The notes under the pieces: model-generated
What the model was told of the DNA's origin: nothing
Databases searched by the model: none
Seen by the model: only the letters and a program-made list of their open reading frames with translations
Program-made: the position numbers and the translations under genes
Shown here: one piece after another, positions 1,170 to 19,826 of the stretch
How positions within the stretch are numbered: the stretch's first letter is position 1
Layout of the letters: every line of letters starts with the position of its first letter
Assembly: GCA_037127585.1 (NCBI GenBank)
Contig: JBAXYB010000003.1
Coordinates: 3,248 to 67,247, forward strand
From: Verrucomicrobiota bacterium
GTDB taxonomy: Bacteria > Verrucomicrobiota > Verrucomicrobiia > Palsa-1439
DNA length: 64,000 bases
Reading direction: 5' to 3'

Positions 1170-1244
1170 CCGCGGTGGGGTTGACGGGCGGTGTACAATG
1201 TTTGGCGCGCAAATCTTAACTGACTTCACCATCGGAGGACGACA

Positions 1245-2393: not shown

Positions 2394-2408
2394 GGGACTT
2401 GGTGTAGC

Positions 2409-2440: not shown

Positions 2441-2500
2441 CTCAGCGGGAATCGGCGGCTCACAGAGCCGCCGCTACAACTATTTATAACACGCACTAAC

Positions 2501-3403: not shown

Positions 3404-3437
3404 ATTAACCACACAGACGGATTGCCGGTCAGAAAGG

Positions 3438-5558
3438 TTACGAAGATTGGGCTTCGGCAATGACGGCGAGCGCTTCTTCGCCGAAGCGTTGGGCTTTGGC
3501 GGGGCCGATGCCGCGCACGTTTAACAGATCGGCGGGCGACTCCGGCAGGAGTCGCGCTAGCTCTTGCAGCGTCTTGTCCGGGAAGACGACGTACGCCGGT
3601 ATGCCCATTCGCGTGGAAGTTTCGCGTCGCCATTTTTTCAACGCTTCGAAGACGTTGTTGTTGTAGTCCGCTGGTGGAGTGGCGGCTGTCCCAGCCGCTT
3701 TCTTGCGAGCCGGTCGCGGCGCTGAGGCCGCTCCCACATTCGCTGCCGGCATTGTTAGGGGGATTGTTTTCTGTTTCAGCATCACTTCTCGGCCGAGGTC
3801 CGTGATCGAGAGGGTGGGGAAACGGTCGCCACCAACCGCAATGCAGCCGGCACGGATCAACGAGTCGAGCAACGACCACACGTAATCGGAGCCTTGCTCG
3901 GCCAAAAGTCCATAAGTCGAGAGTTGATCGAGACGGGCATCGACGACTTCTTTCGAGCGTGACCCGGTCAGTGTCTGGGCAATGCGGGCGCGGCCAAACC
4001 GGCCGTTGACGCGCGCGACGCAACTCAATGTCTTTTGAATGCTGACGGTTTCGGCGTCGGTCGGTAAGCGCGGGGCGGTCTTGCCGGTCTGGGTGACGCA
4101 GTTGTCGCAGACGGTGCAATGCGGACTGGCCTCAGTGTCGCCGAAGTAATCGAGGATGAAGTTGTGCCGGCAGCCGTGGTGATCGGCGTAGGCGATGATC
4201 TTGTGGAGCTTGCCGAGGTCGCGCTGGCGTTTGCTTTCGAGGCGCTCAAAATCAATCTCCAATTCGGAGAAGGCTTTGACTGGTTCGACGAGGCCGGTCG
4301 TGTAGGTCCGATTGCCGGATTCATAATCGCGGGCGATGAAGCCGGCCCGTTCGAGTTGAAACAAGGCGCTACCGACGGCCATGCCGTTCTTGACGCCCGG
4401 CAATTGTTCGGCGATGTCGTCAATCGACATGGTGATCGGGCCGCGTTGACAGAGGCGGGTTAAGGTCTGGTACAAGGCGGCGATGATTTCGCGAGTTGGG
4501 TTGGCGCCTTCGATGAAAAACTCCTGCGTGCGAACGTCGGCATAGTTAAACAGGATCTCGCAGCGGGCCGGCTCGCCATCGCGACCGGCGCGGCCGGCCT
4601 CCTGGTAATATGCCTCGACGCTGCCGGGGATGTCGAAGTGAATGACGAACCGCAAGTCCGACCGGTCGATGCCCATGCCGAAGGCATTGGTCGCGACCGC
4701 CACGTCGCAATCGCCGTTCATGAATTTGGTTTGGGCTTTGTTGCGTTGCTCGGGCGTCATCGCGCCGTGGTAGGCGATGCATTTAATGGGCAACTCGGCG
4801 GCGACTTTTTCGACGTTCTTGCGGGTGGCGCAATAGATGATGCCGGTCTTGTATTGGCGGACGATGTCGACGATGTGCTGAAATTTCGCGGCTTTGCCTT
4901 TGACGTTGGCGACGGCGAGCGTGAGGTTGTGCCGGGCAAAGCCGGTGACGAAAACTTGCGGTTCTTGCCGGCCAAACTTACCGAGGGCGAGCTGTTCGAT
5001 GATGTCGGCCCGGACTTCAGGCGTGGCGGTGGCGGTGAGGGCGATGACCTGCGGTTGTCCGAGTTCTTTGAGCGCCCATTTCAAGCGGATGTAGTCGGGC
5101 CGGAAGTCATGTCCCCATTGTGAGATGCAATGCGCCTCGTCCACCGCAAAGAGCGCGATGGACAACGGCGCTAGGGCGCGGATGAAGCGGTCGCTCTTGA
5201 AGCGTTCTGGCGCGATGTAGACGAGCCGGTAATCGCCGCGTTGCATGCCGGCGGTGCGGGCATCGATCTCGGATTGACTGAGCGAGGAGTTGATGAACGT
5301 GGCCGGGATCTTCTTATCGGTGAGGGCATCGACCTGATCTTTCATCAAGGCGATGAGCGGCGAGACGACGACGGTAATGCCTTCGAGGGCGAGGGCGGGG
5401 TACTGATAGCAGAGTGATTTGCCGCCGCCGGTCGGCATGATGACGAGCGTGTCCTGGCCATCGAGGATGGTCTCGATGACGTGCTCCTGGCCTTCGAGAA
5501 ATTCCCGAAAGCCGAAGTGTTGCTCAAGGAGTTGGTGGCGTTGCGTCGAGTCAAGCAT
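3438..5558 (-). CDS. recQ: ATP-dependent DNA helicase RecQ
   Basis: Canonical RecQ N-terminus (LEQHFGFREFLEGQEHVIETILDGQDTLVIMPTGGGKSLCYQ). DEAH box, RQC and C-terminal HRDC-like region are present. 706 aa. Confidence 0.9.
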   Translation of the reverse strand: MLDSTQRHQLLEQHFGFREFLEGQEHVIETILDGQDTLVIMPTGGGKSLCYQYPALALEGITVVVSPLIALMKDQVDALTDKKIPATFINSSLSQSEIDARTAGMQRGDYRLVYIAPERFKSDRFIRALAPLSIALFAVDEAHCISQWGHDFRPDYIRLKWALKELGQPQVIALTATATPEVRADIIEQLALGKFGRQEPQVFVTGFARHNLTLAVANVKGKAAKFQHIVDIVRQYKTGIIYCATRKNVEKVAAELPIKCIAYHGAMTPEQRNKAQTKFMNGDCDVAVATNAFGMGIDRSDLRFVIHFDIPGSVEAYYQEAGRAGRDGEPARCEILFNYADVRTQEFFIEGANPTREIIAALYQTLTRLCQRGPITMSIDDIAEQLPGVKNGMAVGSALFQLERAGFIARDYESGNRTYTTGLVEPVKAFSELEIDFERLESKRQRDLGKLHKIIAYADHHGCRHNFILDYFGDTEASPHCTVCDNCVTQTGKTAPRLPTDAETVSIQKTLSCVARVNGRFGRARIAQTLTGSRSKEVVDARLDQLSTYGLLAEQGSDYVWSLLDSLIRAGCIAVGGDRFPTLSITDLGREVMLKQKTIPLTMPAANVGAASAPRPARKKAAGTAATPPADYNNNVFEALKKWRRETSTRMGIPAYVVFPDKTLQELARLLPESPADLLNVRGIGPAKAQRFGEEALAVIAEAQSS

Positions 5559-5961
5559 GACGTGTAAATGGATAGTGTGGCAATTGGAAGCCGCTCGAGC
5601 CGAATAGTAGGGTGCTTGTGCGAACTTGCCAAGCTCCGGGACAATGTCGCTAGTGATCTCGGGCCGGTAAGGCGCAACGATCGGCCTTCTACCTACGCCG
5701 GTGTAGCGTGCATTATCCCCAGCGCTGATTCCAGCGTGACGAGTCGCGTCAATCTTGCTAAACGCAACGCGCCATGACTATCACCACCTTGCCGCTCTGG
5801 CCTACCGGCTGTCCGAATAATCCGCAACCTGAGCACGGATGTCTGGCAGGCGCTGCCAACGTTTCAGAATCTGCCCGGCACGGGTGCGAAAATGAGCGCG
5901 ACGAACTCCCTGACAATTCCGACGCAGACTTACCGGCTAAACGGGCGCGTGCCGTAGCGCG

Positions 5962-5991
5962 TTGACAAGGCGGGCGGGCGGCGTCTACGAT
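5962..5991 (+). promoter_or_regulatory. candidate sigma70-like promoter (TTGACA-18 nt-TACGAT) for DUF502/recO
   Basis: TTGACA at 5962-5967 and TACGAT at 5986-5991. This would place the transcription start next to the second ATG (5999), suggesting a short or leaderless 5' UTR. Confidence 0.25.
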
Positions 5992-6607
5992 GCCGGTCAT
6001 GAGCGAGCAGTGGAAATCCATTCGTATTTCATTTTTTACCGGGTTGCTAGTGGTGGTACCGGTCGGGGCGTCGATTGGGTTGATCTGGTGGGTGATCAAA
6101 TTGGTGACGGCGTGGTTGCCGGATCAATATGATTCGCCATTGTGGCGCATGGCGGGCGTGGTGTTCCTGGTTGTGGTGACCGTCTTGGTGGGGATGCTGA
6201 TGCGGAAAGTGGCCGGTAAGCGGCTGATTTCGTTGGGTGAAGATTTGATCGGGCAGACGCCGTTGTTGAATAAGATTTATCCGTTCATGAAAGAGATCAG
6301 TCACACGATGCTCTCCGGGCAGAAGACGATGTTTCAGCGGGTAGTGCTAGTGCAGTTTCCACGCCGGGGAATTTATTCGATTGGATTCATCACGAGCGAG
6401 ACGGCGGGTGAGGCGCAGGCGAAAACGAAGGAGCAAGTCGTCAATGTGTTCGTGCCGACCACTCCGAATCCGACGAGTGGTTTTTTAGTATTGGTGCCGC
6501 GGGAGCAGGTGACGAATATGGATATGTCTGTGACGGAGGGGATGAAAATGGTGATTTCCGGCGGCGCGGTGGTGCCGGCGTATTTGCCGGACGGCAAGCG
6601 GCCGTGA
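5990..6607 (+). CDS. DUF502 family membrane protein
   Basis: N-terminal TM helix (FFTGLLVVVPVGASIGLIWWVIKLV) and a conserved DUF502-like core. True start may be the ATG at 5999. Confidence 0.65.
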   Translation: MPVMSEQWKSIRISFFTGLLVVVPVGASIGLIWWVIKLVTAWLPDQYDSPLWRMAGVVFLVVVTVLVGMLMRKVAGKRLISLGEDLIGQTPLLNKIYPFMKEISHTMLSGQKTMFQRVVLVQFPRRGIYSIGFITSETAGEAQAKTKEQVVNVFVPTTPNPTSGFLVLVPREQVTNMDMSVTEGMKMVISGGAVVPAYLPDGKRP

Positions 6608-7248
6608 TGGAGACGGAGCGCGCGGAGGGGATTGTGGTGCGGTTGCAGCCGGTCACCGAGACGAGTTTGTTGGTGACGTGGTTTACGCGGGAACACGGGA
6701 AGTTGAAGACGTTGGCGAAGGGCGCGCGGCGACCGAAGAGTCCGTTGCGGGGACGGATCGATCTTTTTTACGAGGACGAGATCATTTTTTTGCGGAGTCG
6801 ACGGAGTGATTTGCATTTGTTGCACGATTGTTTTTTGGAGAATTCACACCGGCGGTTGCGGGAGAGTCTGGCCGGGTTGATGGCCGCCTCTTATGTCTGC
6901 GAGTTGGTTGATGTGCTGACGGAGGTCGAAGACCGGCACGCTGCCATATATATAGCGCTGACGCAGGTGTTGGGGATGTTGGAGAAGTCGGCAGGGGTGG
7001 TGCCGCTGCTGTGGTTTGAGTTGCAGGTGTTGGCCGCGGCGGGCTGGCGACCGGAGTTTACTGACGAGACGGGAACGGGGAAGGTGTTGCGGTCGTTGGC
7101 GGCAGCCAGTGCGACCGGAGTGCAGCGCGTGAAGTTGACTGTCGCGCAAGCGCGGGCGGCGCAGGTGAAGTTGGGGCGGTTCCGGGAAGAGCAGGTGGGC
7201 CGGGGGTTGCGATCGGAAAAAATGTGCTTTGAGAAAATCAATCGTTGA
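6604..7248 (+). CDS. recO: DNA repair protein RecO
   Basis: N-terminal OB-fold signature AEGIVVRLQPVTETSLLVTWFTREHGKLKTLAKGARRPKSPLRG. Overlaps the upstream stop (GTGATGG). Confidence 0.8.
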   Translation: MMETERAEGIVVRLQPVTETSLLVTWFTREHGKLKTLAKGARRPKSPLRGRIDLFYEDEIIFLRSRRSDLHLLHDCFLENSHRRLRESLAGLMAASYVCELVDVLTEVEDRHAAIYIALTQVLGMLEKSAGVVPLLWFELQVLAAAGWRPEFTDETGTGKVLRSLAAASATGVQRVKLTVAQARAAQVKLGRFREEQVGRGLRSEKMCFEKINR

Positions 7249-7394
7249 CATTATCCGGTCGGATACTAAGATGCGCCGCACGTAGTGGTGGATGGAATAG
7301 GTTCCGATTGATACTTCAATGAACACGCTTGTCATGACGCAGGCGCCGAGCCGGCAAGCCAACCCAAAACAACCGTACCAGGAGTAGAAGAGCT

Positions 7395-9134
7395 ATGGCT
7401 ACTGAAGCGACAACACGCCGTCAAGTTGAGTTCCCAACGCACGAACGTCCCCATACCGAGATCAGTATCACAGCCATGTTTGGGATTGCGGCGGCTTTTA
7501 CCGTTGCGTGGTTTGGGATCTTGTACGTTACACCGCCAACGAATCACAATTTCGTCCGCGACCTTTTCATGGGTGCGGAAGTGGATCACGAGGGGAAGGT
7601 AATCAAGGGGTTCTTGACTGAACGCGTGATCTTCCAAGGCATGATTACCTTGGTTTGGGCGTGCTCAATGGCGACCGTGGTTTTGAAGCTCATGCGCCTC
7701 AAGAAGGAACAAGCGAGTCTCGAGGATGATCTGATTCCTGAGGGGATCGATATGGGTGACTCCGATAAGCTGATTGAAGTTTATCAAAGGATTAAGTCAA
7801 TGCCGGATATCTCGGAGAGTCTTGGCGTCAGTCGCGTGGGGCGCGTGTTGGCCATGTGGATTAATACGGGTGACTTTGAGCGAACTGCGGAATTTGCGCA
7901 TCTCCAATCGGATATGGATGCAGCGATTTCAGATTCCAGCTACCGCACAAACCGCTTGTACATTTGGGCGATGCCGTTGTTGGGATTCGTTGGAACGGTC
8001 TTCGGTGTTGCGGCCGGCATCAGCGGATTTGCAGCGTTTTTGCGGAGTGGAAATGTTTCGGCACAACAGATCACCGAGCAGGTCGGTAACATTACGACTG
8101 GTTTGGCTGTTGCGTTTTTCTGTACGTTATTGGGTCTTTTGACCGCTGGTTTGGCGGCCTTCCCGAGTTTGATGGCGGAACGTAAAGAGGAAGGCATTCT
8201 CTCGGAAATCGATGAATATGTTGAAGACCGGTTGTTGTCACACATGCCATCGGGCGGTGCCGCTGCGCTTGAGCAACAGAAGTTTCCGATTGATGAACTG
8301 GTTGGGGCGATTCGCGAGGGGATGGCTGGGCTGACAGCGCAGACCAAATTCCCGGTGGAAGAACTCGCCCAAGCGATTGATGCCGGGTTCCGGCGCTTGC
8401 CGAATCCAGAGCGCTATGAGGAAGTCTTCTCCAAGGCGGTCGCGAAAGCTGGCGAAGTCATCAATACGAAATACGAAGAATTTCAGACGAATTACGAGCG
8501 CCGGATCGGCGAGCTTGGTTCAACGTTGGGCGGTAAGCTGGGTGAAGTGGCCAATAACTTTAATAGCGGCACCACCCGCATGATGGCCGACTTTACGAAG
8601 GCCCAAGAGAAGAGCCTTGAACAGTTCGCGAAGAACGATGCCAAGCTCACCGAAAACTTTGAAGAATTGACGGAGAAGGTTACCGCGATGGGGAAAGAAA
8701 TTGCCGAACAGATCGGCGATTCCCACGAGACCTACCTCGAAGCTGTCACCGATCTCGACAAGAAAGAAATTCAACGTTGGGAGAAGATGGTCAACGACTT
8801 CAATCAGTTGTCGGTCAAGTTGGCCGATTCGTTCAAGCAATCGGTTTCCACACTCGACTCCGCATCGGGCCGGTATGCCGATCGGATTCAGCAATCGGTG
8901 CAACAATTGACCGATCAACTGGAGAAGATCGCGCAGCTCGGCAATGAGATTGATAAGGTCTTGCGGACAACGCAGAGCATGGAAGCTACACTCCGGCAGG
9001 TTGGCAGTTCGGATGAGTTCCGCCAGACGTTGGCGAACATTCGGAGCCACTTGGTCACCAGTGATGAGTTGTTGAAGCAATTGTCCAAGCCGCGCAAAGT
9101 CGTGTTCCAAGAAGCGCGCGCCGACGACATTTAA
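7395..9134 (+). CDS. MotA/TolQ/ExbB-family proton channel protein with long C-terminal coiled-coil extension
   Basis: TM helices plus the MotA/ExbB signature RLYIWAMPLLGFVGTVFGVAAGISGFAAFL. ~300 extra C-terminal residues are coiled-coil rich, with repeated KFP[IV][DE]EL..AI..G motifs. 579 aa, versus ~240 aa for typical ExbB. Confidence 0.75.
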   Translation: MATEATTRRQVEFPTHERPHTEISITAMFGIAAAFTVAWFGILYVTPPTNHNFVRDLFMGAEVDHEGKVIKGFLTERVIFQGMITLVWACSMATVVLKLMRLKKEQASLEDDLIPEGIDMGDSDKLIEVYQRIKSMPDISESLGVSRVGRVLAMWINTGDFERTAEFAHLQSDMDAAISDSSYRTNRLYIWAMPLLGFVGTVFGVAAGISGFAAFLRSGNVSAQQITEQVGNITTGLAVAFFCTLLGLLTAGLAAFPSLMAERKEEGILSEIDEYVEDRLLSHMPSGGAAALEQQKFPIDELVGAIREGMAGLTAQTKFPVEELAQAIDAGFRRLPNPERYEEVFSKAVAKAGEVINTKYEEFQTNYERRIGELGSTLGGKLGEVANNFNSGTTRMMADFTKAQEKSLEQFAKNDAKLTENFEELTEKVTAMGKEIAEQIGDSHETYLEAVTDLDKKEIQRWEKMVNDFNQLSVKLADSFKQSVSTLDSASGRYADRIQQSVQQLTDQLEKIAQLGNEIDKVLRTTQSMEATLRQVGSSDEFRQTLANIRSHLVTSDELLKQLSKPRKVVFQEARADDI

Positions 9135-9177
9135 TAGGTCAACTTGACTTCGAACCTACCGGAAGGAAGGTAACAGC

Positions 9178-9723
9178 ATGGCTGGACGCAAGGAGTATAA
9201 GAAGATCGACATTGATGTGGAGCCGTTCTTGTCGATTATGGCCATCGTCATGAAGTTAATCTCCTTGATTCTCGTCGTGATCGTGATGCGAATCGCGGCG
9301 AACCGGGATAAAAAGCACGTGGTGGCCTTGGAAGGGTTGTGGGACGGGTCTACTGGGAATACCAAGAATATCAAAGAGCCAGTCTACTTAGATTGTTTCG
9401 AGGATAAGGTTATTATCTATCCCGGTTCTATCACGAACACGTGGGAGGCTTTGCAAAAACCTGGCAATCCAGTCGAGAAGTTGTTTGATAGAATTCAAGC
9501 GAACTCGACCAACGAATACGTTGTAGTGCTGGCTCGACCGCAGTCGGTGAAATTCTATCGAGCCATTCGCCGGAAACTTAGTCAACGTGGCGGTATCGAC
9601 GTTGGTGCGGATGTAGTCGATGCCAAGTATACAGTGAACTGGGATGCGGCGCTTGGTGCTTTGTCTGTATCGGAGGAAGTACCCGAAACGGCAACGAACA
9701 ACCCGCCGGCTTCGGTCAATTAG
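9178..9723 (+). CDS. ExbD/TolR-family biopolymer transport protein (paralog 1)
   Basis: Basic N-terminus plus TM (IDIDVEPFLSIMAIVMKLISLILVV). Periplasmic domain motifs KEPVYLDCFEDKVIIYPG and EYVVVLARPQSVKFYRAIRRKL match ExbD. Confidence 0.75.
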   Translation: MAGRKEYKKIDIDVEPFLSIMAIVMKLISLILVVIVMRIAANRDKKHVVALEGLWDGSTGNTKNIKEPVYLDCFEDKVIIYPGSITNTWEALQKPGNPVEKLFDRIQANSTNEYVVVLARPQSVKFYRAIRRKLSQRGGIDVGADVVDAKYTVNWDAALGALSVSEEVPETATNNPPASVN

Positions 9724-9753
9724 CAGTGGTGATAACTAACGGAGCAATGAGCC

Positions 9754-10389
9754 ATGCCCAAGCGTAAAAAGAAACATGAGCCAGAGATGCTGATCGTATC
9801 GTTTTGCGACATCGTAACGATTACGACGGCCGCGTTGTTTTTCTGTTTGTTGATCACCGTTCAAGAGGCAGTCAAGGTCCCCGTCTTCAAACCAACGCCG
9901 CGGTCCGCGCCGACGGACAAGACCCCCGTGTTTTTTGAATGCCGGGAAAATGCTGTGATCTATATCGACAAAGAAGGGCTGGATGCGCAGGTTCAACGGA
10001 TGCTGCAGACACTGCCGGCCAATGTGAAGAGTGGTGATATCCAAGCATTTGTTCGGGCAGTTGGAACTGATACGGTTGGCAACGAGTACTACCGGGTCAT
10101 TCCTAGTTATTTGCTGACAGCCATTATGGCATTAGAGCCAAAACCAGGATCCAAGGGTGAAGACAAGCAGCAGTTGAAAGCGGAGAACAGTCGATTTCAC
10201 TTGGTTCTCCGCCAATTGGATCGCAAAAAGCAGTATGCTGTTTTCTTGGTTCGCGACGATAGCTTTGAGGTGTTTCGCAGTGCCCGCAAAGAGGCATTCA
10301 CCACGGGTTTTGAAATCGGTTGGGAATTACTTGGAAAAGATGAACCAGTTAAGTTTGGCTCCGGTGGTGCTGAGATACCGACGAGCTAG
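9754..10389 (+). CDS. ExbD/TolR-family biopolymer transport protein (paralog 2, extended)
   Basis: MPKRKKKHEPEMLIVSFCDIVTITTAALFF TM segment. KTPVFFECRENAVIYIDKEG and YAVFLVRDDSFEVFRSARKEAFTTGFEIG match ExbD. 211 aa. Confidence 0.7.
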   Translation: MPKRKKKHEPEMLIVSFCDIVTITTAALFFCLLITVQEAVKVPVFKPTPRSAPTDKTPVFFECRENAVIYIDKEGLDAQVQRMLQTLPANVKSGDIQAFVRAVGTDTVGNEYYRVIPSYLLTAIMALEPKPGSKGEDKQQLKAENSRFHLVLRQLDRKKQYAVFLVRDDSFEVFRSARKEAFTTGFEIGWELLGKDEPVKFGSGGAEIPTS

Positions 10390-10600
10390 CATGGGTTCGT
10401 AGGTTGTTTTTCTCCGACAACTTTCTTAAAGTTGCGAGCTAGTGCTCATTGAGTTAGCGCCAGACATTAGTTTGCCAATTTAGCGGCGAGATGGTAAGTT
10501 CGCAGCGTTCTGGATAGTTCGAATATCAAGGGCAACCTTGGCAGAACCAGAAGATGTAGTTCGATAGTTACGAATTTCGACCGGTAAAGCTAAATCACCT

Positions 10601-11623
10601 ATGCCACGCAAACCACAGGCAGGAAAAGGCAAGAGCAAGAGTACGGTAATTGTGTGGGTTGTGCTTGGGGTGTTGCTCTTGGGTGCTGGTGTTCTGGCAA
10701 TCAATGTGACCCAGCGTTTCCGTCGCGTGGTCCAGGAGACCAATCAGGTCCGGTCGGCAGTTCAAGAGGCTGTCAAACGTCAAGAGATGGTGGTCAAATC
10801 CCCCGCGCGTAAAGAATTTTCCTCGGCGTTTCTGCAAATGGCTTTTGGCGACAATCCGCCACTCTTGGAGCAGATTAAGGATGCGCTCAGTCGGGCGATC
10901 GGCGAAAAACCGTCACTAACCCAAGGGGATGTGGCCATGATGTTGGTGACGTACCGGGCGGAGGGCGAGCTTCACGATGTCGCGATTCATGTCTTCGGTA
11001 ACCTAAACCCGGAACGCTTACCGGCATTCAGTACGGAGGGTTACTGGAAGTCTCAGTTGCCGGAGCAGTTCTACAACATGGGGCAGACGATGTTGTCATT
11101 GATGGGGCGCGAAGTATTGATTTTGGCGTCGAAAGATGTCGAGAAACGGCAACGGGAGTTACTGGACGCCAGCACCAATGATCGTTTCACAGTCGTTCAG
11201 GATTATTTCCACGACCCCGTTTCTTTCATCGCCGTCATTCCCGAGCCGGCAAAACTGTTTACCGATCAATACCGGCCGTTTATGGCGGCGGTGCTCGTGA
11301 AAGGCAAAATCTCCATGGACGAAGCCCGGTTTGAGTTTGTGGCGTTAAGTTTCGACCAGCGTAAAGCTCAGGAACTCGCCCAAATGCTTTCCGATGCACG
11401 GACGATGGCAACCAGCATTGCGCGGGTGCGTTTTGGTGGGGCTGCCATTGCGGAGTCGGCGTTTCAATCCCTCGCACGTTCGCATGTGCGCGCCGAAGGG
11501 CCGACCGTGGTCATCAACTCCATGATGCCGGGTAGCGTGTTGGAGAAATCCTTGCCGCAAATTGTACGCGTTCTCTCCAAAGGCACTGGGCGAATCCGTC
11601 GCGGTCCGGGTTATCCGAGCTGA
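10601..11623 (+). CDS. hypothetical membrane-anchored protein
   Basis: Basic N-terminus and a single TM (STVIVWVVLGVLLLGAGVLAINV), then a ~300-aa soluble domain with no motif I recognise. Lies in the ExbB/ExbD cluster. Confidence 0.5.
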   Translation: MPRKPQAGKGKSKSTVIVWVVLGVLLLGAGVLAINVTQRFRRVVQETNQVRSAVQEAVKRQEMVVKSPARKEFSSAFLQMAFGDNPPLLEQIKDALSRAIGEKPSLTQGDVAMMLVTYRAEGELHDVAIHVFGNLNPERLPAFSTEGYWKSQLPEQFYNMGQTMLSLMGREVLILASKDVEKRQRELLDASTNDRFTVVQDYFHDPVSFIAVIPEPAKLFTDQYRPFMAAVLVKGKISMDEARFEFVALSFDQRKAQELAQMLSDARTMATSIARVRFGGAAIAESAFQSLARSHVRAEGPTVVINSMMPGSVLEKSLPQIVRVLSKGTGRIRRGPGYPS

Positions 11624-11626
11624 CGA

Positions 11627-13582
11627 GTGGCATCGCGTGACATGAAACTAGCCCGCTGCATTCTAGCGATTGTCGGGTGTGTTACCCTTGCAGATTTCGT
11701 TGCCGGTGCTGACTTGAATGACCCGGTGGACGTCAAACTCAAGAATGCCTATCAACGAATTCGGTTTGGCCAGCAGTACCCAGAAGAGGCGGTTCAGTTC
11801 ATCCAGTCGCAGTTACAGGATGTCGCTCGTCCGTTGACGGTATTACCCCAATTAGCCAAGGATAAGCGCGTCGAAGTTCGCGCGCTGGTGGCCCTGTTGT
11901 ATGGTGAATATGGCGACGCCGAAGCCAGTAAGATTCTCTGGCTCCTCACGCGCGATGAATTTGAATCAGTTCGCTTAACCGCAGCCGGAGCGATCGCGCG
12001 CTTGGGCCACTTGACAATAGTTACCGGTAATGTCGAGGGACTTCAGGACGAACGGCCGGCCGTCCGCCGGTTGACGGCCAGTATCTTGGCGGCTCTCGGT
12101 GATAAGTCGGCTGAAGAGGCACTCATTGATGCGCTCAAAGATGATAACGAGTTGGTTCGTACCGATATCGTGAAGGCCCTCAGCAAGGCCGCTTGCGGAA
12201 CGGACAAAGCTTTATCGTCCTTAATCGAAGCGTTGCATGATCCCAGCGTCAATGTCCGGGATCGAGCCGCTCAAGTGTTGGGCGGTTTTCAACAGATTGA
12301 CGTAGTCGATCCGCTCGTCAATGCGTTGAAGGACCCGGACTGGCATGTGCGTGCCGCGGCGGCGGATGCCCTCGGTGGCTGGGTCAAGATTCCGGTCGTT
12401 GTAGACGCACTGATCCGAGTCTTGGAGAACGACACTTTTGCCTTGGTCCGCGACCGGGCCGCGGATGCATTATCGCATCTTGGCGATGATGAGCGGGTGG
12501 TTCCCGCCTTGGTCAAAGCCCTCGGTGCCGAGCAACGCGATGTCCGCTTTCACGCCGCCCAAGCTCTAATCTCAGCCAAAGCCTCCAGCGCGTTGCCATT
12601 ACTCACGGCGGAATGGCGACGGACAACTCCCGCACCGGGCGGGCGTGATGCTTTTCCTGATCTTCGTGAGAAAATAATGGATATTTTTGGTCGTCTTGGT
12701 GGCGGTGATCAATTGCCAGTGATTATCGAAGGGACCAACGATTCAGAACCGCAGGTCCAATTGGCGGCCGTGAATGCGCTTCGTCGTCTCAAGGAACGCG
12801 GTGCCGGTAAACAGCTTAACGCCTGTTTAACCGATAAGAATCCCCACGTCCGCGCTGCCGCAGTCCGGGCCATTGGCGACCTCGGCGAGAAGGAAGCATC
12901 CATCAGGATATTGCCGCTGTTACGCGACGAAAGTAGTTATGTGAGGAGTGCGGCGGCCGAAGCGCTTGGCAAGCTCGGTGACCGGACTGCAATCATCCCG
13001 TTAATTCAGGTCCTCACCGGCGAAAAGCTGCCGGATGATCCCAAAGCCGGTTTGGTTATCGGTTCGGGAGATAAGTTTCTCGCTGACCTCGAGCTCACAA
13101 AAGTTCAGACCAGAACCCGGGCCATCGAAGCCCTCGGCGTCTTGCGTGCACCCGAAGCAGTTGAACCGATTATTAAAAACGGCTTAACAGCCGAAGATGC
13201 CGGGGTGCGGGCCGTTTCCGCCTATGCTCTTGGTCAGATCGGCGACGTGCGTGCGGTTGAGCCACTCAAAGATGTCGTCCGTAGTTATTACCTGACCGCG
13301 CCGACTGATCTTGATTACGTTATTAATCCCGGCGGTGGCGAAAAAGTTGCCGACGAAGCGCGGCGCATGAAAGAAAAGGAATCTCGCGTGCGCGCCTCCG
13401 TTACCTGGGCGCTTGGCCAGATCGGTGATGCCGCGGCCAAAGAAACCTTACTCAAGGCAATGAACGATCAGAACAGCTTGGTGCGCGACTCCGCGTTTGA
13501 AGCGCTTGCCAAAATTGCCGAAAAAGAAGAAGCCCAACAAATCGCGACGGACGCCAAAAAGAAATCCGAGAAAACACCCTAG
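11627..13582 (+). CDS. secreted HEAT-repeat (PBS-lyase-like) protein
   Basis: Signal-peptide-like N-terminus (MKLARCILAIVGCVTLADFVAGA). More than 12 tandem ~30-aa repeats of the form VR..A..ALG..GD..A...L...L.D. Confidence 0.75.
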   Translation: MASRDMKLARCILAIVGCVTLADFVAGADLNDPVDVKLKNAYQRIRFGQQYPEEAVQFIQSQLQDVARPLTVLPQLAKDKRVEVRALVALLYGEYGDAEASKILWLLTRDEFESVRLTAAGAIARLGHLTIVTGNVEGLQDERPAVRRLTASILAALGDKSAEEALIDALKDDNELVRTDIVKALSKAACGTDKALSSLIEALHDPSVNVRDRAAQVLGGFQQIDVVDPLVNALKDPDWHVRAAAADALGGWVKIPVVVDALIRVLENDTFALVRDRAADALSHLGDDERVVPALVKALGAEQRDVRFHAAQALISAKASSALPLLTAEWRRTTPAPGGRDAFPDLREKIMDIFGRLGGGDQLPVIIEGTNDSEPQVQLAAVNALRRLKERGAGKQLNACLTDKNPHVRAAAVRAIGDLGEKEASIRILPLLRDESSYVRSAAAEALGKLGDRTAIIPLIQVLTGEKLPDDPKAGLVIGSGDKFLADLELTKVQTRTRAIEALGVLRAPEAVEPIIKNGLTAEDAGVRAVSAYALGQIGDVRAVEPLKDVVRSYYLTAPTDLDYVINPGGGEKVADEARRMKEKESRVRASVTWALGQIGDAAAKETLLKAMNDQNSLVRDSAFEALAKIAEKEEAQQIATDAKKKSEKTP

Positions 13583-13647
13583 CTCGTGCCGGGCGGTTGA
13601 CATCCCAACCGTGTGCACTACATTCCGTCGGGTAGTACAAGGATGAG

Positions 13648-14655
13648 ATGGATTTAGTGAGACTTCACCTGCGAGATTTTATCTGGATTACGCTCGGGAC
13701 TCTGTTCTTACCGGCCTACACTCTGACAGGCTCCGCGGAAGATCCCGGCATACCCTGGCTCAATCACTTAAGCCTTAGCGCCCCGGAGCACGCCGGCTTG
13801 GTGGACAATGTGCTGCCACTTCTGCGCGGCGCACCGGCGGCCGTTGACCCAGATTTGGCCGTGGTCACCTTCCGAACTGGAGCCGCCGGTATCAAAGACG
13901 CCGTAATCCAACTCTACCAAGCGCCCACTTCCGGTGGCGCTCCAGTCCTCAACCCCCAAGGCGTCGTCCGCGACCGCGTCGGTGAATCGATGGCCGACTC
14001 GGCTGACAAACTACTTGGGCTCGTGCTCCAACAACCCGCTTGCTTCGGTGCCGCCACCGAGGTCCGGCGGCAACGCCGCGCTCTCAACTTGACCTTCAAC
14101 GGCGACCTCACTCTCTTGCGCGAACAAACCGTCGAACCACTCTACGTCGTCGGCGTCCTCGTTCATGCCGAACGGTACCTGCCGCGGAGTCTCAGTGCGC
14201 GCGTTCGAGCCGTTGTTCTCACTGCGCAACTCGACTTCGGTGAATGGCGCGGCCGGCTCAACTTCGTGACCGACAACCCAGCCGACGCTGAACAGGTCGG
14301 CAACATCGTGGCCGCGTGGCGTGATCTGGCCGGCTCGCTGGCGGCACACTTTGCCGGTCACTCCTCCGGCGACCGACTGCGTGCCGCGCTCCAAGCTTCC
14401 ACCGTTGTCGTCAACGAGAACCAAGTAACTGCCACCAGCGCGATCCCTGCGCCCGTCGTCGTTCGTGTCGCGAAAGAAGCCGCCGGTCACGGTAGCGGTT
14501 GCCCACCGGGCGGCGTTTGTGACCGGAACAAAATTGCCATTTGCCACAAATCCAGCACCACACTTTGTCTCCCACCAGCTGCGGTATCCGCTCACTTGGC
14601 GCATGGTGACACGTGTGGCCCCTGCGGTGTCCACGCCGCTACCGCTACCCCGTGA
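13648..14655 (+). CDS. hypothetical secreted protein with Cys-rich C-terminus
   Basis: N-terminal hydrophobic leader. C-terminal CPPGGVCDRNKIAICHKSSTTLCLPPAAVSAHLAHGDTCGPCG. Stop overlaps the start of the next HEAT gene (GTGATG). Confidence 0.45.
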   Translation: MDLVRLHLRDFIWITLGTLFLPAYTLTGSAEDPGIPWLNHLSLSAPEHAGLVDNVLPLLRGAPAAVDPDLAVVTFRTGAAGIKDAVIQLYQAPTSGGAPVLNPQGVVRDRVGESMADSADKLLGLVLQQPACFGAATEVRRQRRALNLTFNGDLTLLREQTVEPLYVVGVLVHAERYLPRSLSARVRAVVLTAQLDFGEWRGRLNFVTDNPADAEQVGNIVAAWRDLAGSLAAHFAGHSSGDRLRAALQASTVVVNENQVTATSAIPAPVVVRVAKEAAGHGSGCPPGGVCDRNKIAICHKSSTTLCLPPAAVSAHLAHGDTCGPCGVHAATATP

Positions 14656-15650
14656 TGCGGCTGACCATCATCGTCTGCTTCGCTCTCACCGGCCTACTAC
14701 TTGCCCAAGAACCCGAATCCCGACTCGACCGGCTCACTCGCTGGTTGCGTTCGCCACGAGCCAGCATCCGCGAAGAGGCTGTTACCGAGCTCGACACCGT
14801 TCCCATCAATAGCGCCTTGCCGTTGCTCCTCTCCGCGCTCAGCGATTCGAGCACCGTTGTCCGGGCCGCCGCCGCCAGTTCACTCGCGCGCACCGCCGAT
14901 AAACGTGCCGTACCGGCGTTGCGACCTTTGCTGAAAGATGACGACGAACATGTCCGGGCCGCCGCCGTCTGGGCACTCTGCCACACTGCCGGCAAAGCCA
15001 TCCTGCCGGACGTGCTTTCAATGTGCCTCGACGACGCCTCCGGTATCGTCCGCTTCCGAGCGGTTTGGGGTTTGGCCTTCATTGGCGATAAGTCCGCCTT
15101 ACCGGTCGCCGTCGCCGCACTCGGCGACTACAACACCGCCGTGCGCGAACGCTCCGCACTCCTCGCGCTCGACGTGCTGGCCGACGGGACGATTGGTGAT
15201 CGACTGGTCAAACAGGCGAAAAATATATTTCCACCAACGCGGCGAATTGTCATGTACCTCTTCACCCGGTATGGTGACGCAAAACAAGCCGGGCTGGCAC
15301 TCCAGGCCGGCCTGAAGGATGGCGAACCGCTCGTGCGCGCCGAAGCCGCACTCGCACTCGGCCGGCGCCACGCGAAGAACGTCGTGCCATTCTTGTTGCC
15401 GGCGCTCCAGGACGACGACGATCACGTGCGCGGTGCGGCGGCTCATGCACTCGGTTTGTTGGGAGAGCCTTCTAGCCGGGAAGCCTTACGTCCGTTGCTG
15501 CAAGACGAGGCCGCGTTCGTACGAGCCGTGGCGGCGGAATCCCTGCAACAATTGGGCGATCAAACCATCAAACCACCGGCCGGTTTCCGCGCGGCGGACC
15601 TGTTCACCTATCCAATTTACAGCCCCGAGAATGCGCAACGTTACCGCTGA
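14655..15650 (+). CDS. secreted HEAT-repeat protein
   Basis: Signal peptide MRLTIIVCFALTGLLLAQ followed by HEAT/PBS-lyase repeats (VRAAAASSLARTADKRAVPALRPLLKDDDEHVRAAAVWAL...). Confidence 0.75.
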   Translation: MRLTIIVCFALTGLLLAQEPESRLDRLTRWLRSPRASIREEAVTELDTVPINSALPLLLSALSDSSTVVRAAAASSLARTADKRAVPALRPLLKDDDEHVRAAAVWALCHTAGKAILPDVLSMCLDDASGIVRFRAVWGLAFIGDKSALPVAVAALGDYNTAVRERSALLALDVLADGTIGDRLVKQAKNIFPPTRRIVMYLFTRYGDAKQAGLALQAGLKDGEPLVRAEAALALGRRHAKNVVPFLLPALQDDDDHVRGAAAHALGLLGEPSSREALRPLLQDEAAFVRAVAAESLQQLGDQTIKPPAGFRAADLFTYPIYSPENAQRYR

Positions 15651-16829: not shown

Positions 16830-18305
16830 CTAATACTGCGGCACGTCCGTGTCGATCCGCTCAGCCCAGGCGTTGATGCCGCCGGCGACGTTCTTGACTT
16901 TCGTGTAGCCTTGGGTCTTGAGGAAGCTGACGGCGCGGGCGCTGCGACCGCCCATTTTGCAGTGGACGACGAGCTGTTTGTCCTTCGGCAGTTCCCGGAA
17001 ACGCTGCGGCAACTCCGGCAGGGGAAGTTTGACGGAGCCGTCGATGACGCTGATCTCGAATTCGTCGGGGTTGCGAACGTCGACGAGAACAAAATCTTCT
17101 TTGGCGTCGCGCATCTTCTTGAGGGTCTCGACACTGATGTCGTCGGGACCGAGGCCTTCTTCCTTTTTCTCGACGATGCTGTCGCCGGAGGTGCCGCCGT
17201 CTTCGCCGCGACCGATGCCGCAGAATTCGTTGTAGTCGATCAACGCGGTGATCGTCGGATTCTTTCCGCAGAGGGGGCAGTTGTGGTCTTTCGGGATTTT
17301 GTATTCCCGGAAAGTCATATCCATCGCGTCGAAGCGGAGCAACCGACCCATGAGCGGTTTGCCTTTGCCGATGATGAGTTTGATGGCTTCGTTGGCTTGG
17401 ATGTTGCCGATGATTCCGCAGATGACGCCGAGCACACCGCCTTCGGCGCAACTCGGGACGAGTCCGGGCGGCGGCGGTTCGGGGTACCAGCACCGGTAAC
17501 ATGGCCCGCCGAGGTGTGGCGCGAACACGCTGGCCATGCCTTCAAAGCGGAAGATCGAGCCGTAGACGTTCGGCTTCTTGAGCATCACGCAGGCGTCGTT
17601 GACGAGGTACCGGGTCGGGAAATTGTCGGTGCCGTCGACGACGAGATCGTAGTCCTTGATGAGGTCGAGCGCGTTCTCAGAGGTGATCTTGGTTTCGTGG
17701 GGGATGAAGTTCAGGTTCGGGTTGATCGCCTTCATCTTCTCGCCGGCGCTCTGGACTTTCGGTTTGCCGACGTCGCCGGTGAAATGGATGATCTGGCGCT
17801 GGAGATTGCTGAAATCCACGGTGTCGAATTCCACCATGCCGATGGTGCCGACGCCGGCCGCGGTGAGATAGAGGGCGAGGGGCGAACCGAGTCCGCCGCT
17901 GCCGATGAGCAATACCTTCGCGGCTTTGATGCGTTCCTGACCTTCGACGCCGACTTCCGGCAAGATGAGATGCCGGGAGTAACGCTTGATTTCTTCATTG
18001 GTCAGTTTCGCGCGGGTCTTGATGACCGGGTCGATGCCGCCGGCAATGGACGGGACAATCGCGATTTCATCGCCTTCCTTGACAGGAGTGTGGTCGCCCT
18101 GCAAGCGGATGTCCTCGTCGTTGACGTAGACGCGGACGAAGTTCCGCAGTTTGCCATCGCCGGTATAGAGGTGTTGCCGGAGTTGGGCATGCTGGGTGGT
18201 TAAATTGTTGAGAACTTCGCTGATGGTCGTGCCGGCGACTTCGACATTCGCTTGGTTGTCGGCGAAGCGGCGGAGCGCGGTCGGAATGGTAACGATGATT
18301 GGCAT
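16830..18305 (-). CDS. moeZ: fused sulfur-carrier protein (CysO/MoaD-like, ends in GG) + MoeZ/MoeB-type E1 adenylyltransferase + C-terminal rhodanese
   Basis: N-terminal ~90 aa MoaD/ThiS fold ending in ...EGDEIAIVPSIAGG. ThiF/MoeB nucleotide-binding motif VLLIGSGGLGSPLALYL and CxxC pairs. C-terminal rhodanese with active-site loop VVHCKMGGRSARA. Continuous ORF, no stop between domains. Confidence 0.8.
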   Translation of the reverse strand: MPIIVTIPTALRRFADNQANVEVAGTTISEVLNNLTTQHAQLRQHLYTGDGKLRNFVRVYVNDEDIRLQGDHTPVKEGDEIAIVPSIAGGIDPVIKTRAKLTNEEIKRYSRHLILPEVGVEGQERIKAAKVLLIGSGGLGSPLALYLTAAGVGTIGMVEFDTVDFSNLQRQIIHFTGDVGKPKVQSAGEKMKAINPNLNFIPHETKITSENALDLIKDYDLVVDGTDNFPTRYLVNDACVMLKKPNVYGSIFRFEGMASVFAPHLGGPCYRCWYPEPPPPGLVPSCAEGGVLGVICGIIGNIQANEAIKLIIGKGKPLMGRLLRFDAMDMTFREYKIPKDHNCPLCGKNPTITALIDYNEFCGIGRGEDGGTSGDSIVEKKEEGLGPDDISVETLKKMRDAKEDFVLVDVRNPDEFEISVIDGSVKLPLPELPQRFRELPKDKQLVVHCKMGGRSARAVSFLKTQGYTKVKNVAGGINAWAERIDTDVPQY

Positions 18306-18312
18306 GGTGTCT

Positions 18313-18717
18313 CTATAGCACTTCAATTGGCTCTTGGTCAAATTGGCTGCGGTCATCCCGTAGCAGCCACGAGTTTGTTTCGACAGCTTTCCCTTTGCAT
18401 ACCGAGACGATCAGGTAGGCGAGATTTGGAAACGCGTTATCGAGGTCGAACTGCGATGGTCGCGCCGGCACGTCGGGATGCGAGTGGTAGATGCCGAGGA
18501 CTTGGATGGCCCGTTTGTCCGCGGCGCGTTCGATATCTCGGTAGGCGAGGGGATCGATGAGGTACCGGTTGTGGGCGCTGTCGTCGCGCTGGTTGTCGGC
18601 CCGGGCAATTTCGCTCACGACGTTGCCGTGACCGAGGAGGACGCCGCATGCTTCGTTTGGGTAACCGGCTTCGAGGTGTTGGTGGATTTGTGTCAGCAGT
18701 GCCTGTTTGATCTTCAT
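18313..18717 (-). CDS. mec: Mov34/MPN/JAMM metalloprotease (Mec+ / CysO-cysteine peptidase-like)
   Basis: JAMM motif EACGVLLG ... HSHPDVPARPSQFD. 134 aa. Confidence 0.8.
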   Translation of the reverse strand: MKIKQALLTQIHQHLEAGYPNEACGVLLGHGNVVSEIARADNQRDDSAHNRYLIDPLAYRDIERAADKRAIQVLGIYHSHPDVPARPSQFDLDNAFPNLAYLIVSVCKGKAVETNSWLLRDDRSQFDQEPIEVL

Positions 18718-19646
18718 CGCGCTTCCCAGAATTTGTCGCTTTGATACCGCGCCCCGCCGTCCGGCGCAACCGCGACGATGACGCCTTGTTGAATCCGCCC
18801 GGCCAACGTCACCGCCGCGCAGACAGCGGCTCCCGCACTGATGCCGACGAACAAGCCTTCCGCGCTCGTCAGTTGTCGGGCCATCGCTTGGGCGTCTTCA
18901 GTGCTGACGCCGATGGTTTCGTCGGCGAATTTCGAGCTGAATATTTCCGGCACGTGCGAGGCCGTCTCCATATGTTTGAGACCTTCGAGACCGTGGAACG
19001 GTCCTTCGGGTTGCATCGCGATGATGCGGATGGCCGGATTGTGTTCGCGGAGCCGGCGGCCAGTGCCCATCAACGTTCCGCTCGTGCCAAGGCCGGCAAT
19101 GAAATGCGTTACTTCGCCGGCGGTTTGCGTGATGATTTCTGCGCCGGTCGTCTCGTAATGGGCTTGGGGGTTCTCGAGGTTTCCGTACTGGTTTGGGTAG
19201 AAGTACTGGCCGGTACTGGTTTCGAGGAGCTTCTGCGTTTCATAATACGCGCCGTCGCTGCCTTGCGCTGGATCGGTGAGAACTAATTCGGCTCCGTATG
19301 AAGCGAGCAACTTTTTCCGTTCGATGCTCGCGTTTGCCGGCATGAGCAGTTTGCACCGATAACCTTTGCGGGCGGCAATCATCGCGTACGCGATGCCGGT
19401 GTTGCCGCTGGTAGCGTCGACAATGGTTTTGTCTTTTGTCAGCGCACCGGAGATTTCGCCTTGGCGAATCATCCGGTACGCGGGCCGGTCTTTCACGGAG
19501 CCGCCCGGGTTGAACCATTCGGCTTTCAGGAAAACGCGGACATGCGGAAAAGTCGCGATGCGGAGCAGGGGAATGAGCGGCGTGTTGCCGATCTGGCGTA
19601 GTAACGCGTCGGAATCATCAGCCGGCAATGGAGAGGCGCTATTCAA
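18714..19646 (-). CDS. cysM: cysteine synthase (CysM/CysK family, PLP-dependent)
   Basis: PLP-lysine motif KAEWFNPGGSVKDRPAYRMI, plus SGNTGIAYAMIAA. The ORF-track N-terminal extension is rejected because it runs through the tRNA. Probable TTG start at 19646. Confidence 0.75.
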   Translation of the reverse strand: MNSASPLPADDSDALLRQIGNTPLIPLLRIATFPHVRVFLKAEWFNPGGSVKDRPAYRMIRQGEISGALTKDKTIVDATSGNTGIAYAMIAARKGYRCKLLMPANASIERKKLLASYGAELVLTDPAQGSDGAYYETQKLLETSTGQYFYPNQYGNLENPQAHYETTGAEIITQTAGEVTHFIAGLGTSGTLMGTGRRLREHNPAIRIIAMQPEGPFHGLEGLKHMETASHVPEIFSSKFADETIGVSTEDAQAMARQLTSAEGLFVGISAGAAVCAAVTLAGRIQQGVIVAVAPDGGARYQSDKFWEAR

Positions 19647-19668
19647 AAGAGTTGTCTTGGGCTTGGAT

Positions 19669-19744
19669 TGGTGGAGATGAGGGGATTCGAACCCCTGGCC
19701 TCCTCGTTGCGAACGAGGCGCTCTACCAACTGAGCTACATCCCC
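19669..19744 (-). tRNA. tRNA-Ala (anticodon CGC), CCA encoded
   Basis: Cloverleaf by eye: 7-bp acceptor stem with G3:U70 (Ala identity), D-arm GCTCAGTTGGTAGAGC, anticodon stem CCTCG/CGAGG with loop TTCGCAA, T-arm GGTTCGAATCC, 3' CCA. Confidence 0.85.
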
Positions 19745-19826
19745 GACCCAAGCGCAGAATCTGCGACGCGCGGAATTTACTGTTTGAGTTGATTGCCGTC
19801 AACGTTTCACTTATGGTCACACCACT

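Follow-up and report, generated by a model that had tools for sequence, protein, structure and literature searches.

The window described here is a 64,000-nt stretch of contig JBAXYB010000003.1, part of the metagenome-assembled genome of a Verrucomicrobiota bacterium. At nt 7395–15650 it carries seven co-directional genes, named here A, B1, B2, C, H, C' and H2 (genes 1–7), which an initial annotation had taken together as a candidate envelope machine with an ExbB/MotA-like motor. All seven open reading frames (ORFs) are present at the lengths given there. The first three, A-B1-B2, are a conserved three-gene unit of the ExbB/TolQ/MotA/ZorA superfamily, composed of a tailed A subunit and a heteromeric pair of B subunits with a single Asp. 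This trio is invariant across four phyla, being found in every locus that extends past A among the 44 recovered in a profile scan (see below), on two plasmids, and in all metagenome loci that extend far enough. The other four genes all encode proteins with an export signal or an N-in membrane anchor.

All features of the cluster lie on the + strand. The genes are separated by 43 nt (A–B1), 30 nt (B1–B2), 211 nt (B2–C) and 65 nt (H–C'), and the C–H gap is 3 nt with the GTG start of H or 18 nt with its ATG start. Since genes 4 and 5 are thus separated, only one of the two overlapping stop/start junctions described previously is left, a 1-nt overlap (TGATG) between C' and H2 if the latter begins at ATG 14655. 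Tight spacing applies to most junctions but not to the long B2–C spacer (nt 10390–10600), which has a lower G+C content and a terminator-like hairpin at nt 10381–10400. Rfam and tRNA scans gave no match in the cluster, nor in this spacer. C and B2 of the window have exact counterparts (100% identity) in the NCBI proteins WCS70_00865 and WCS70_00860, respectively.

Subunit A

Gene A (nt 7395–9134) encodes a 579-aa membrane protein with an ExbB/TolQ/ZorA fold. Its match to Pfam PF01618 (MotA_ExbB), at aa 190–257, scores 19.6 bits and misses the cut-off of 22.9, so that its earlier assignment as a MotA/TolQ/ExbB channel holds because of the fold and not the family score; precomputed matches to PF01618 are present in many A orthologs. 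In an AlphaFold2 (AF2) model of A (17 homologs), aa 1–285 have a predicted local distance difference test score (pLDDT) of ~80. A Foldseek search with this model gave as best matches ExbB (5sv0), ZorA (8vvn, ranked second) and TolQ (9ddm, 8odt, 8vlw, 9kpz), with a probability of 1.0 and target-normalised TM-scores of up to 0.66; MotA ranked lower. A sequence-profile search of A against the PDB returned marginal matches only. Across an alignment of 17 sequences, extending down to 51% identity, residues P194, G197, G200, T201, G204, T234 and T244 are invariant, and by inspection the Pro/Gly/Thr pore-helix motif of transmembrane (TM) helices 2 and 3 corresponds to the equivalents of ExbB T148 and T181. 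A therefore shares with ExbB and TolQ both the P..G..GT motif of TM2 and the Thr of TM3, but inspection of the alignment shows that it lacks the Glu found in the last TM helix of those proteins (ExbB E176, TolQ E173), and it has an extra hydrophobic N-terminal helix (aa 25–45) relative to both. From this helix and the charge distribution, both termini of A are predicted to be cytoplasmic.

The last ~300 aa, already recognized in the initial annotation as an additional region with a repeated motif, are predicted to be entirely helical. They begin with two tandem copies of FP[IV][DE]EL..AI..G at aa 296–313 and 318–335 (nt 8280–8399), a third copy occurring in one homolog, and the alignment of A homologs shows FPVEELAQAIDAGFRRLPNP to be nearly invariant at these tail-start motifs. 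A coiled-coil region follows (aa 338–565; nt 8406–9089), in which hydrophobic residues recur with an amphipathic periodicity of 3.6–3.7 residues, i.e. hendecad-like and not heptad. AF2 renders the tail as long helices with low pLDDT. Mean column identity in the tail is 0.72–0.82, above that of the N-terminal TM helix and the periplasmic loop, and two further motifs are near-invariant, FPVEELAQAIDAGFRRLPNPDRYEEVF and, at the C-terminus, ...LLKQLSRPRKVVFQE. Because the best-conserved part of the protein is the putatively cytoplasmic tail, the output of the motor need not be periplasmic. The extra coiled-coil region that had been counted as a component of an envelope machine does exist, but by topology it is predicted to be cytoplasmic, and in architecture it resembles ZorA.

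The ZorA models of PADLOC match A weakly (best E 1e-8) and mostly in the tail, where the coiled coils of LmuB, JetC and DruC score similarly. As the matches are common to all of these, they are largely compositional and indicate shared architecture, not homology to Zorya; they were consequently dropped as proof of membership in that system.

Subunits B1 and B2

Genes B1 (nt 9178–9723; 181 aa) and B2 (nt 9754–10389; 211 aa) encode N-in single-pass proteins, each with a basic N-terminus and one TM helix. They had been described as two tandem ExbD/TolR paralogs. That they are paralogs of each other is clear (hhalign 98.6%, E 1e-15), but their likeness to ExbD is weak. Against Pfam PF02472 (ExbD; cut-off 25.4 bits) B2 reaches 13.3 bits (E 0.086) and B1 has no match, while at E<1 the domain is matched by 5/16 B2 orthologs (best 0.0028) and 0/16 B1 orthologs. 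A B1 profile searched against the PDB has TolR and ExbD among 11 weak matches (E 0.6–2), the corresponding PDB search with B2 gave marginal matches only, and a homolog search with the B2 profile recovered close family members only, with no Pfam domains and no bridge to canonical ExbD. When aligned by hhalign to a manually entered sequence of E. coli ExbD, B1 gave 78.8% (E 1.7e-5) and B2 18%; both fall into the same register, which places ExbD D25 on B2 D19. The N-terminal part of B1 is accordingly ExbD-like, and a C-terminal pattern, hhhhR.D..h..(F/Y)R..R....G, resembles the ExbD/TolR domain by eye only. Neither Pfam nor PADLOC models gave an OmpA or ZorB match in B1 or B2.

The greater length of B2, previously attributed to a long C-terminal extension, is due to an internal insertion of ~57 aa relative to B1 (hhalign). 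The two proteins also differ at the Asp position of the TM helix. F17, C18 and D19 are invariant in B2, while at the corresponding position of B1 every ortholog from the Verrucomicrobiia clade and from Cyanobacteria has Ser, and those of the Kiritimatiellia clade have Asp. With D19 invariant in B2 and Ser in B1, the inner pair is asymmetric and has a single protonatable Asp.

The B1/B2 boundary was re-read in 14 loci, among them all those with an apparent overlap, and in each a stop codon and the start of B2 lie within ~10 nt of each other, so that apparent B1–B2 fusions or long overlaps in some loci were rejected. Within the Planctomycetes-Verrucomicrobia-Chlamydiae (PVC) bacteria a periplasmic Cys is invariant at equivalent positions of the two proteins (B1 C73, B2 C63). 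The B2 Cys is missing from the cyanobacterial homologs, so that a B1–B2 disulfide is a candidate for PVC members only.

C, C' and the HEAT-repeat proteins

Gene C (nt 10601–11623) encodes a 340-aa N-in single-pass protein. Its alignment shows a basic N-terminus, one N-terminal TM helix and a strongly conserved periplasmic region, which is modelled as an alpha/beta domain with moderate confidence (pLDDT 65.8) and has no confident match among solved structures. All of its close homologs (133/133) are unnamed and lack a Pfam domain, and only 73 relatives were recovered when 1.84 billion representative proteins were searched exhaustively with HMMER. No Pfam domain was found in C itself, its alignment has no conserved His/SHLS motif and no Pro-rich linker, and the TonB/TolA-like C-terminal domain that was looked for is absent from a model of this moderate confidence. 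C was therefore rejected as a divergent TonB or TolA, in line with the earlier description of gene 4 as a single-pass anchored protein unlike TonB. The standard Ton system that a divergent TonB would have made of the cluster was not found either, as none of the genes in the cluster or its flanks proved to be one, within the confidence of the C model.

Genes 5 and 7 are secreted HEAT-repeat proteins, as had been proposed. H (nt 11627–13582; 651 aa; alternative start ATG 11642) would be a periplasmic solenoid and matches HEAT_2/HEAT_PBS (HEAT_2 E 2e-79 in 8 stretches); it carries a DPKL..AY.RL.F motif which is conserved among orthologs. H2 (nt 14655–15650) matches the same families (HEAT_2 E 1e-42), begins with the signal peptide MRLTIIVCFALTGLLLAQEP, and is 331 aa long from ATG 14655, or 345 aa from GTG 14613, where its ORF opens. 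The N-termini of both are hydrophobic and signal-peptide-like, likewise in their orthologs. The possibility that H is a lipoprotein was dropped, as the IVGC motif of the window protein is not conserved among orthologs.

C' (nt 13648–14655; 335 aa) starts with a signal-like segment and contains 8 Cys within the final ~60 aa, and so fits its previous description as a secreted Cys-rich protein; it is not, however, unrelated to its neighbours, since C and C' are paralogous over the periplasmic part of C. A hidden Markov model (HMM) built from C recovers the C' of the window (E 1.7e-7) as well as C' orthologs, the latter with E-values as low as 6e-25, and hhalign of C with C' gave 88% (E 2.8e-6 over 202 columns). 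This relationship gives the cluster the layout [A B1 B2][C H][C' H2], in which a 'C-like + HEAT' pair occurs twice. The C-terminal Cys/His module of C' (nt 14470–14655) has the pattern C-H-K...(T)-[IL]-C...AAV.AHLAHGD.CGPC and is not assigned to any Pfam or NCBIfam family. Orthologs of C' carry it singly or as a tandem pair (loci L010, L025 and L034), and its appearance suggests a small domain that binds metal or forms a disulfide knot.

Distribution among PVC bacteria

A profile scan of one genome per species recovered 44 loci in Verrucomicrobiota, Kiritimatiellia and Lentisphaerota, and all PVC members found are metagenome-assembled genomes. B1 and B2 follow A wherever the sequence runs past A. 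In the Verrucomicrobiia clade, defined by an A at least 48% identical, and with gene order counted only over loci with enough sequence, C follows B2 in 30/30 loci and H follows C in 28/28. Median gaps are 33 nt (A–B1), 5 nt (B1–B2), 10 nt (B2–C) and 33 nt (C–H). The A-B1-B2-C-H block occurs in three sets of flanks, RecO/LpxA, peptide chain release factor 1 (RF1)/LpxA, and response regulator/ribosomal protein L28 (e.g. L001, L003), and the PVC copies keep stable synteny with housekeeping genes over a range of 48–90% identity. C' was found in 14 loci and H2 in 11, sometimes with further C-like genes between them and H. That the HEAT genes are chance neighbours, an outcome that by the initial annotation would have refuted its reading, is not borne out, as the arrangement recurs in dozens of genomes and A-B1-B2-C-HEAT is seen in 30/30 sufficiently long loci of the Verrucomicrobiia clade, in three or more distinct settings and with gaps of ~5–33 nt.

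A diverged form of the cluster is present in L051 and L052, in the order tail-less A paralog, tailed A, B1, B2, C-like and HEAT, followed by a convergent C-like + HEAT pair. The tail-less paralog (286 aa; L051 nt 1605–2465, L052 nt 1517–2377) has the membrane domain only, with degenerate pore motifs (HMM E 2.5e-26), and mixed A rings are conceivable in these two loci. In the 14 loci of a distant PVC clade the trio stands by itself among unrelated neighbours (XdhC, BrkB-cNMP, 5-enolpyruvylshikimate-3-phosphate synthase, SurA-like). The SurA-like peptidyl-prolyl isomerase gene adjoins the trio in Lentisphaerota-type loci (L031 nt 4986–6431, L033 nt 14036–15364, L005 nt 131–1393).

Genes 4–7 could be an independent periplasmic module which shares a chromosomal slot with the trio, the latter acting alone through its own periplasmic domains and its tail. 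L057 (nt 1–8000) speaks for this. Its DUF502-RecO...LpxA slot lacks all three genes of the trio and contains four others, which encode in turn a C-like protein of 326 aa, a protein of 285 aa, another C-like protein of 631 aa and a HEAT protein of 346 aa, so that C-like/HEAT genes may be older occupants of this slot. Also in favour are C-like proteins that lie away from any motor (L050, L053, L055), the trios that stand alone in Kiritimatiellia, Lentisphaerota and Cyanobacteria, and the 211-nt spacer with its hairpin in the window. However, the five-gene block moves as a unit into other flanks, the B2–C gap is ~10 nt in most genomes, and the diverged L051/L052 clusters again unite trio, C-like and HEAT genes; L057, moreover, covers only 12.7 kb, and a motor may be encoded elsewhere in its genome. 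On balance two unconnected modules appear a rather unlikely explanation. The proposal that the motor is wired to periplasmic HEAT proteins accordingly keeps the support of a conserved neighbourhood but is weakened by the motor-less slot of L057. The unit conserved across lineages is A-B1-B2, and it is only in the Verrucomicrobiia clade that C and HEAT genes come after it.

Relatives on cyanobacterial plasmids and in metagenomes

Searches of plasmid sequences with A (tblastn) identified complete trios on pANACY.03 of Anabaena cylindrica PCC 7122 and p1 of Microcystis aeruginosa NIES-2481. With local HMMs, the A proteins scored E 8e-65 and 6e-56, B1 ~1e-33, and B2 4e-35 and 7e-31. Both trios retain the C-terminal ~120 aa of the tail, the Ser of B1 and the Asp of B2. 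The Anabaena trio lies directly after type III-B Cmr and CARF-HEPN genes, with viperin and DUF559 genes downstream, and that of Microcystis is flanked by methylase, SLATT and HKD-Snf2 helicase genes at one end and by DUF559, NUDIX, HNH and GIY-YIG genes at the opposite end. PADLOC did not recognize the plasmid trios as any known system.

When the two plasmid proteins were used to scan metagenomes, 28 low-GC loci were recovered, with the trio in all that were long enough and a C-like gene in none of the 28. Their neighbours include WCX/WYL-type regulators, LexA, RuvA, Cas3d, type I restriction-modification (RM) and MADS genes as well as plain housekeeping genes, and in three loci a DUF559-like gene is immediately downstream of the trio. 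Next to many cyanobacterial copies lie housekeeping genes, for example those of RuvA, LexA, leucyl-tRNA synthetase (LeuRS) and pyruvate:ferredoxin oxidoreductase (PFOR). A cyanobacterial-type subfamily with a shorter A (392–396 aa; L075–L080 and L086) has, in all seven loci, a co-directional histidine kinase of ~476 aa (HisKA/HATPase_c) directly upstream, which hints at a signalling link. No relatives of the family were found on IMG/VR viral contigs, and a phage-borne origin was rejected on this ground.

Since some cyanobacterial trios sit in defence islands, an envelope machine, as in the initial annotation, is still a live reading of the family but only one among several. A Zorya-like anti-phage or envelope-surveillance system, in which the rotating tail would signal envelope damage and the accessories would be lineage-specific effectors or sensors, is suggested by the combination of an ExbB-fold domain with a long cytoplasmic hendecad tail, by the weak PADLOC matches to ZorA, by the gene neighbourhoods of both plasmid trios, and by the metagenomic accessories (DUF559-like, WCX/WYL-type, Cas3d, type I RM, MADS), which look like a core with changing partners. 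Yet the ZorA matches are largely compositional, B1 and B2 have no OmpA-like peptidoglycan-binding domain, and neither within nor next to the cluster of the window is there a gene for a nuclease, a helicase or another defence function. ZorC, ZorD, ZorE and the ZorF/G effector genes are absent from the cluster and its flanks, as is any defence-island context. The lack of relatives in IMG/VR and the housekeeping neighbours of many cyanobacterial copies point the same way. Stable synteny and the lack of nucleases and of a peptidoglycan-binding domain argue against the PVC copies being a classical defence system, and a Zorya-like role is considered improbable for the cluster.

Flanking genes and other features

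Upstream of the cluster are RecQ (nt 3438–5558), a DUF502 protein and RecO (nt 6604–7248), and a promoter-like site ahead of A (TTGACA-16-TAAGAT; nt 7245–7272; 10/12 consensus matches) is a weak pattern match only. Downstream lies a convergent LpxA, and further on (nt 16830–19640, - strand) a 508-aa ThiS-ThiF-rhodanese fusion, a JAB/Mov34 peptidase and a PALP (CysM-like) enzyme are consecutive. This row resembles a sulfur-carrier-protein route to cysteine, the carrier here being fused to its activating enzyme. The mechanically called PALP ORF (464 aa; nt 18714–20108, - strand) overruns a tRNA-Ala(CGC) gene (nt 19669–19744, - strand), and the true protein therefore starts downstream of the tRNA and has ~308 aa.

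In different phyla, trios of the family are repeatedly found beside genes of DNA repair or recombination, namely RecO/RecQ in the window, LexA at position -1 (L072/L073) and RuvA at +1 (L067/L068). The adjacency may be coincidental, as RecO-DUF502 occurs without the trio in L057.

Comparison with described systems

The 5:2 ion-driven motors elucidated so far are of five kinds (flagellar stator, Ton, Tol, gliding/type IX secretion motor and Zorya), each converting proton flow into work differently. By the features that define those families, the cluster is not Ton, Tol-Pal or Zorya. To ExbB-ExbD and TolQ-TolR it is similar in the fold and pore motifs of A and in having, in a tight operon, downstream genes for N-in single-pass B proteins with an ExbD-like first strand and a TM Asp (in B2 only here). 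It differs in that the B subunits are unlike each other and have one Asp between them, in the added TM helix and tail of A and its missing Glu, and in the partner genes, which encode a novel alpha/beta protein and HEAT solenoids in place of TonB, TolA, TolB or Pal.

A divergent Ton or Tol-Pal motor whose TonB or TolA is encoded elsewhere, energising TonB-dependent uptake or outer-membrane constriction, would account for ExbB and TolQ being the nearest solved folds of A. Ton systems of Bacteroidetes also have arrangements of one ExbB with two ExbD, and the Tol-Pal operon includes a periplasmic tetratricopeptide repeat (TPR) solenoid, CpoB. The position of lpxA next to the cluster and of SurA-like genes next to the Lentisphaerota trios would also suit such a role. 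No domains of TolA, of the TolB beta-propeller or of the OmpA-like lipoprotein Pal were found in genes 4–7, however, and no TonB, TolA, TolB, Pal or TonB-dependent receptor is encoded in the cluster or its flanks (RecQ, DUF502, RecO, LpxA, ThiS-ThiF, JAB, PALP). The SHLS/His motif, the Pro-rich linker and a C-terminal domain of TonB/TolA type are all missing from C, A is without the last-TM Glu, B1 has lost the Asp, and A has an additional TM helix and a conserved 300-aa tail that are not known from any ExbB or TolQ. A Ton or Tol-Pal motor is for these reasons very unlikely.

Zorya, like the present family, combines a core with accessory genes that vary, and some of the homologous trios are situated in defence islands; ZorA also joins an ExbB-like membrane domain to a long cytoplasmic helical tail of non-heptad periodicity, modelled as a right-handed pentameric coiled coil (PMC11946911). 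ZorB, on the other hand, is a homodimer with two Asp26 and an OmpA-like peptidoglycan-binding domain, where the cluster would have a B1/B2 heterodimer with one Asp and no such domain. With ~230–290 aa, the tail in the window is shorter than that of E. coli ZorA (~500 aa), synteny with housekeeping genes is stable among the PVC copies, and no PADLOC model calls the trio Zorya.

The order of one channel subunit followed by two unlike TolR/ExbD-like subunits recalls AglR-AglQ-AglS and the ExbB-ExbD1-ExbD2 of Bacteroidetes. The A subunits of those systems are not known to have a tail, and their partners are Glt proteins or TonB, none of which is present here. The gliding motor AglRQS of Myxococcus works with the cytoplasmic coiled-coil protein AglZ. 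Conceivably, then, the cluster is a surface-motility or adhesion motor of this type, the tail acting on a cytoplasmic track and C and H on the envelope, a notion for which the shared gene arrangement and the AglZ parallel speak. It is extremely unlikely, since there are no Glt-like genes, the trio is carried by cyanobacterial plasmids in unrelated contexts, and gliding is not known in these lineages. AglRS have been placed among generic ion transporters (PMC12505986).

A parallel in organization is provided by PVC clusters in which genes for one TPR, one tolQ-like and two heterologous tolR-like proteins accompany a transducer bearing the vWA (von Willebrand factor A) domain (PMC12204202, section 8). 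Comparing the motors by description, these clusters resemble the present one in the tolQ-like gene with an unlike tolR-like pair, the periplasmic solenoid, the membrane-anchored partner other than TonB, and the lack of an obvious adjacent TonB or TolA. Their transducer, however, has a TM helix with the SHLS/His motif, a disordered linker and a vWA domain, all three of which are missing from C, their solenoid is TPR and not HEAT, and the A of the window is tailed. Full-text literature searches found no description of this family or gene combination, which agrees with its having been noted at the outset as no recognizable described system.

A possible motor and its significance

Taken together, the cluster is probably best viewed as a member of an undescribed 5:2-type ion-driven motor family with lineage-specific periplasmic accessories, the most likely role being envelope-associated with C and H as partners; we would put this at about an even chance (roughly 0.5). 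Given that its three-gene core is also present in other phyla, the cluster probably represents a novel branch within a known family of motors. By analogy with the solved 5:2 motors, a pentamer of A would surround a B1/B2 heterodimer in the inner membrane. Protons would pass via D19 of B2, on a path lined by T201 and T244 of A, and this flow would turn the ring of A relative to B1/B2. As the ~300-aa tail belongs to A, the bundle of tail helices would rotate in the cytoplasm together with the ring, as has been proposed for ZorA. In the Verrucomicrobiia clade C and H are co-inherited and probably co-transcribed with the motor, and C, H, C' and H2 may be its periplasmic partners, serving as anchor, scaffold or load, with the neighbourhood of C' and H2 being the less strict. 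They would occupy the position held in known systems by TonB, TolA or the peptidoglycan-binding domain of ZorB. The function suggested by this arrangement would be envelope maintenance or surveillance, mechanically coupled to the cytoplasm, and not import of the TonB type.

Several observations weigh against this picture. At the level of the trio, A, B1 and B2 of the window miss the Pfam cut-offs of MotA_ExbB and ExbD, hhalign of B1 and B2 to ExbD and TolR (manually entered sequences, local and global modes) aligns only the TM helix and the first periplasmic strand, and without an Asp in B1 the canonical two-Asp cycle cannot operate. As for the accessories, the model of C is of no more than moderate confidence, and the B2–C distance in the window, 211 nt with a terminator-like hairpin, departs from the ~10 nt of most genomes. 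The trio occurs without C or HEAT genes in Kiritimatiellia, Lentisphaerota and Cyanobacteria, which makes these lineage-specific accessories and not core components. In L057 there are C-like and HEAT genes but no motor beside them, which leaves neighbourhood as the only tie between motor and C/H, and given this locus and the stand-alone trios the tie could be looser than it appears. Finally, the two cyanobacterial trios in defence islands are unexpected for a system of envelope housekeeping.

A broader view, possible but on the doubtful side, sees A-B1-B2 as the centre of a novel class of tailed 5:2 rotary devices that spans several phyla and stands beside ZorAB as a sister concept; envelope and cytoplasm would be coupled mechanically via the rotating tail, and each lineage would add different accessories. 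If so, these would be C-like and HEAT proteins in Verrucomicrobiia, and a histidine kinase, DUF559-type nucleases or clustered regularly interspaced short palindromic repeat (CRISPR)/CARF neighbours in Cyanobacteria. On this view, the form found in Verrucomicrobiia would be the first case of a Zorya-like transmembrane mechanical signalling machine 'domesticated' for housekeeping, and its periplasmic input or output apparatus would be made from a fold and a solenoid new to motor systems.

Three features of the family are unusual. A heteromeric inner pair with one proton-carrying Asp would test models of rotation that rely on two. The ZorA-like tail is found in genes that are apparently inherited vertically and are not defence-island-like, and the partners are neither TonB/TolA nor a peptidoglycan-binding domain. 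Because the core is present in the culture-collection strains Anabaena cylindrica PCC 7122 and Microcystis aeruginosa NIES-2481, the family is experimentally accessible. PVC lineages have been reported to be without recognizable TolA or TonB (PMC12204202), and the cluster bears on how such lineages energise their outer envelope.

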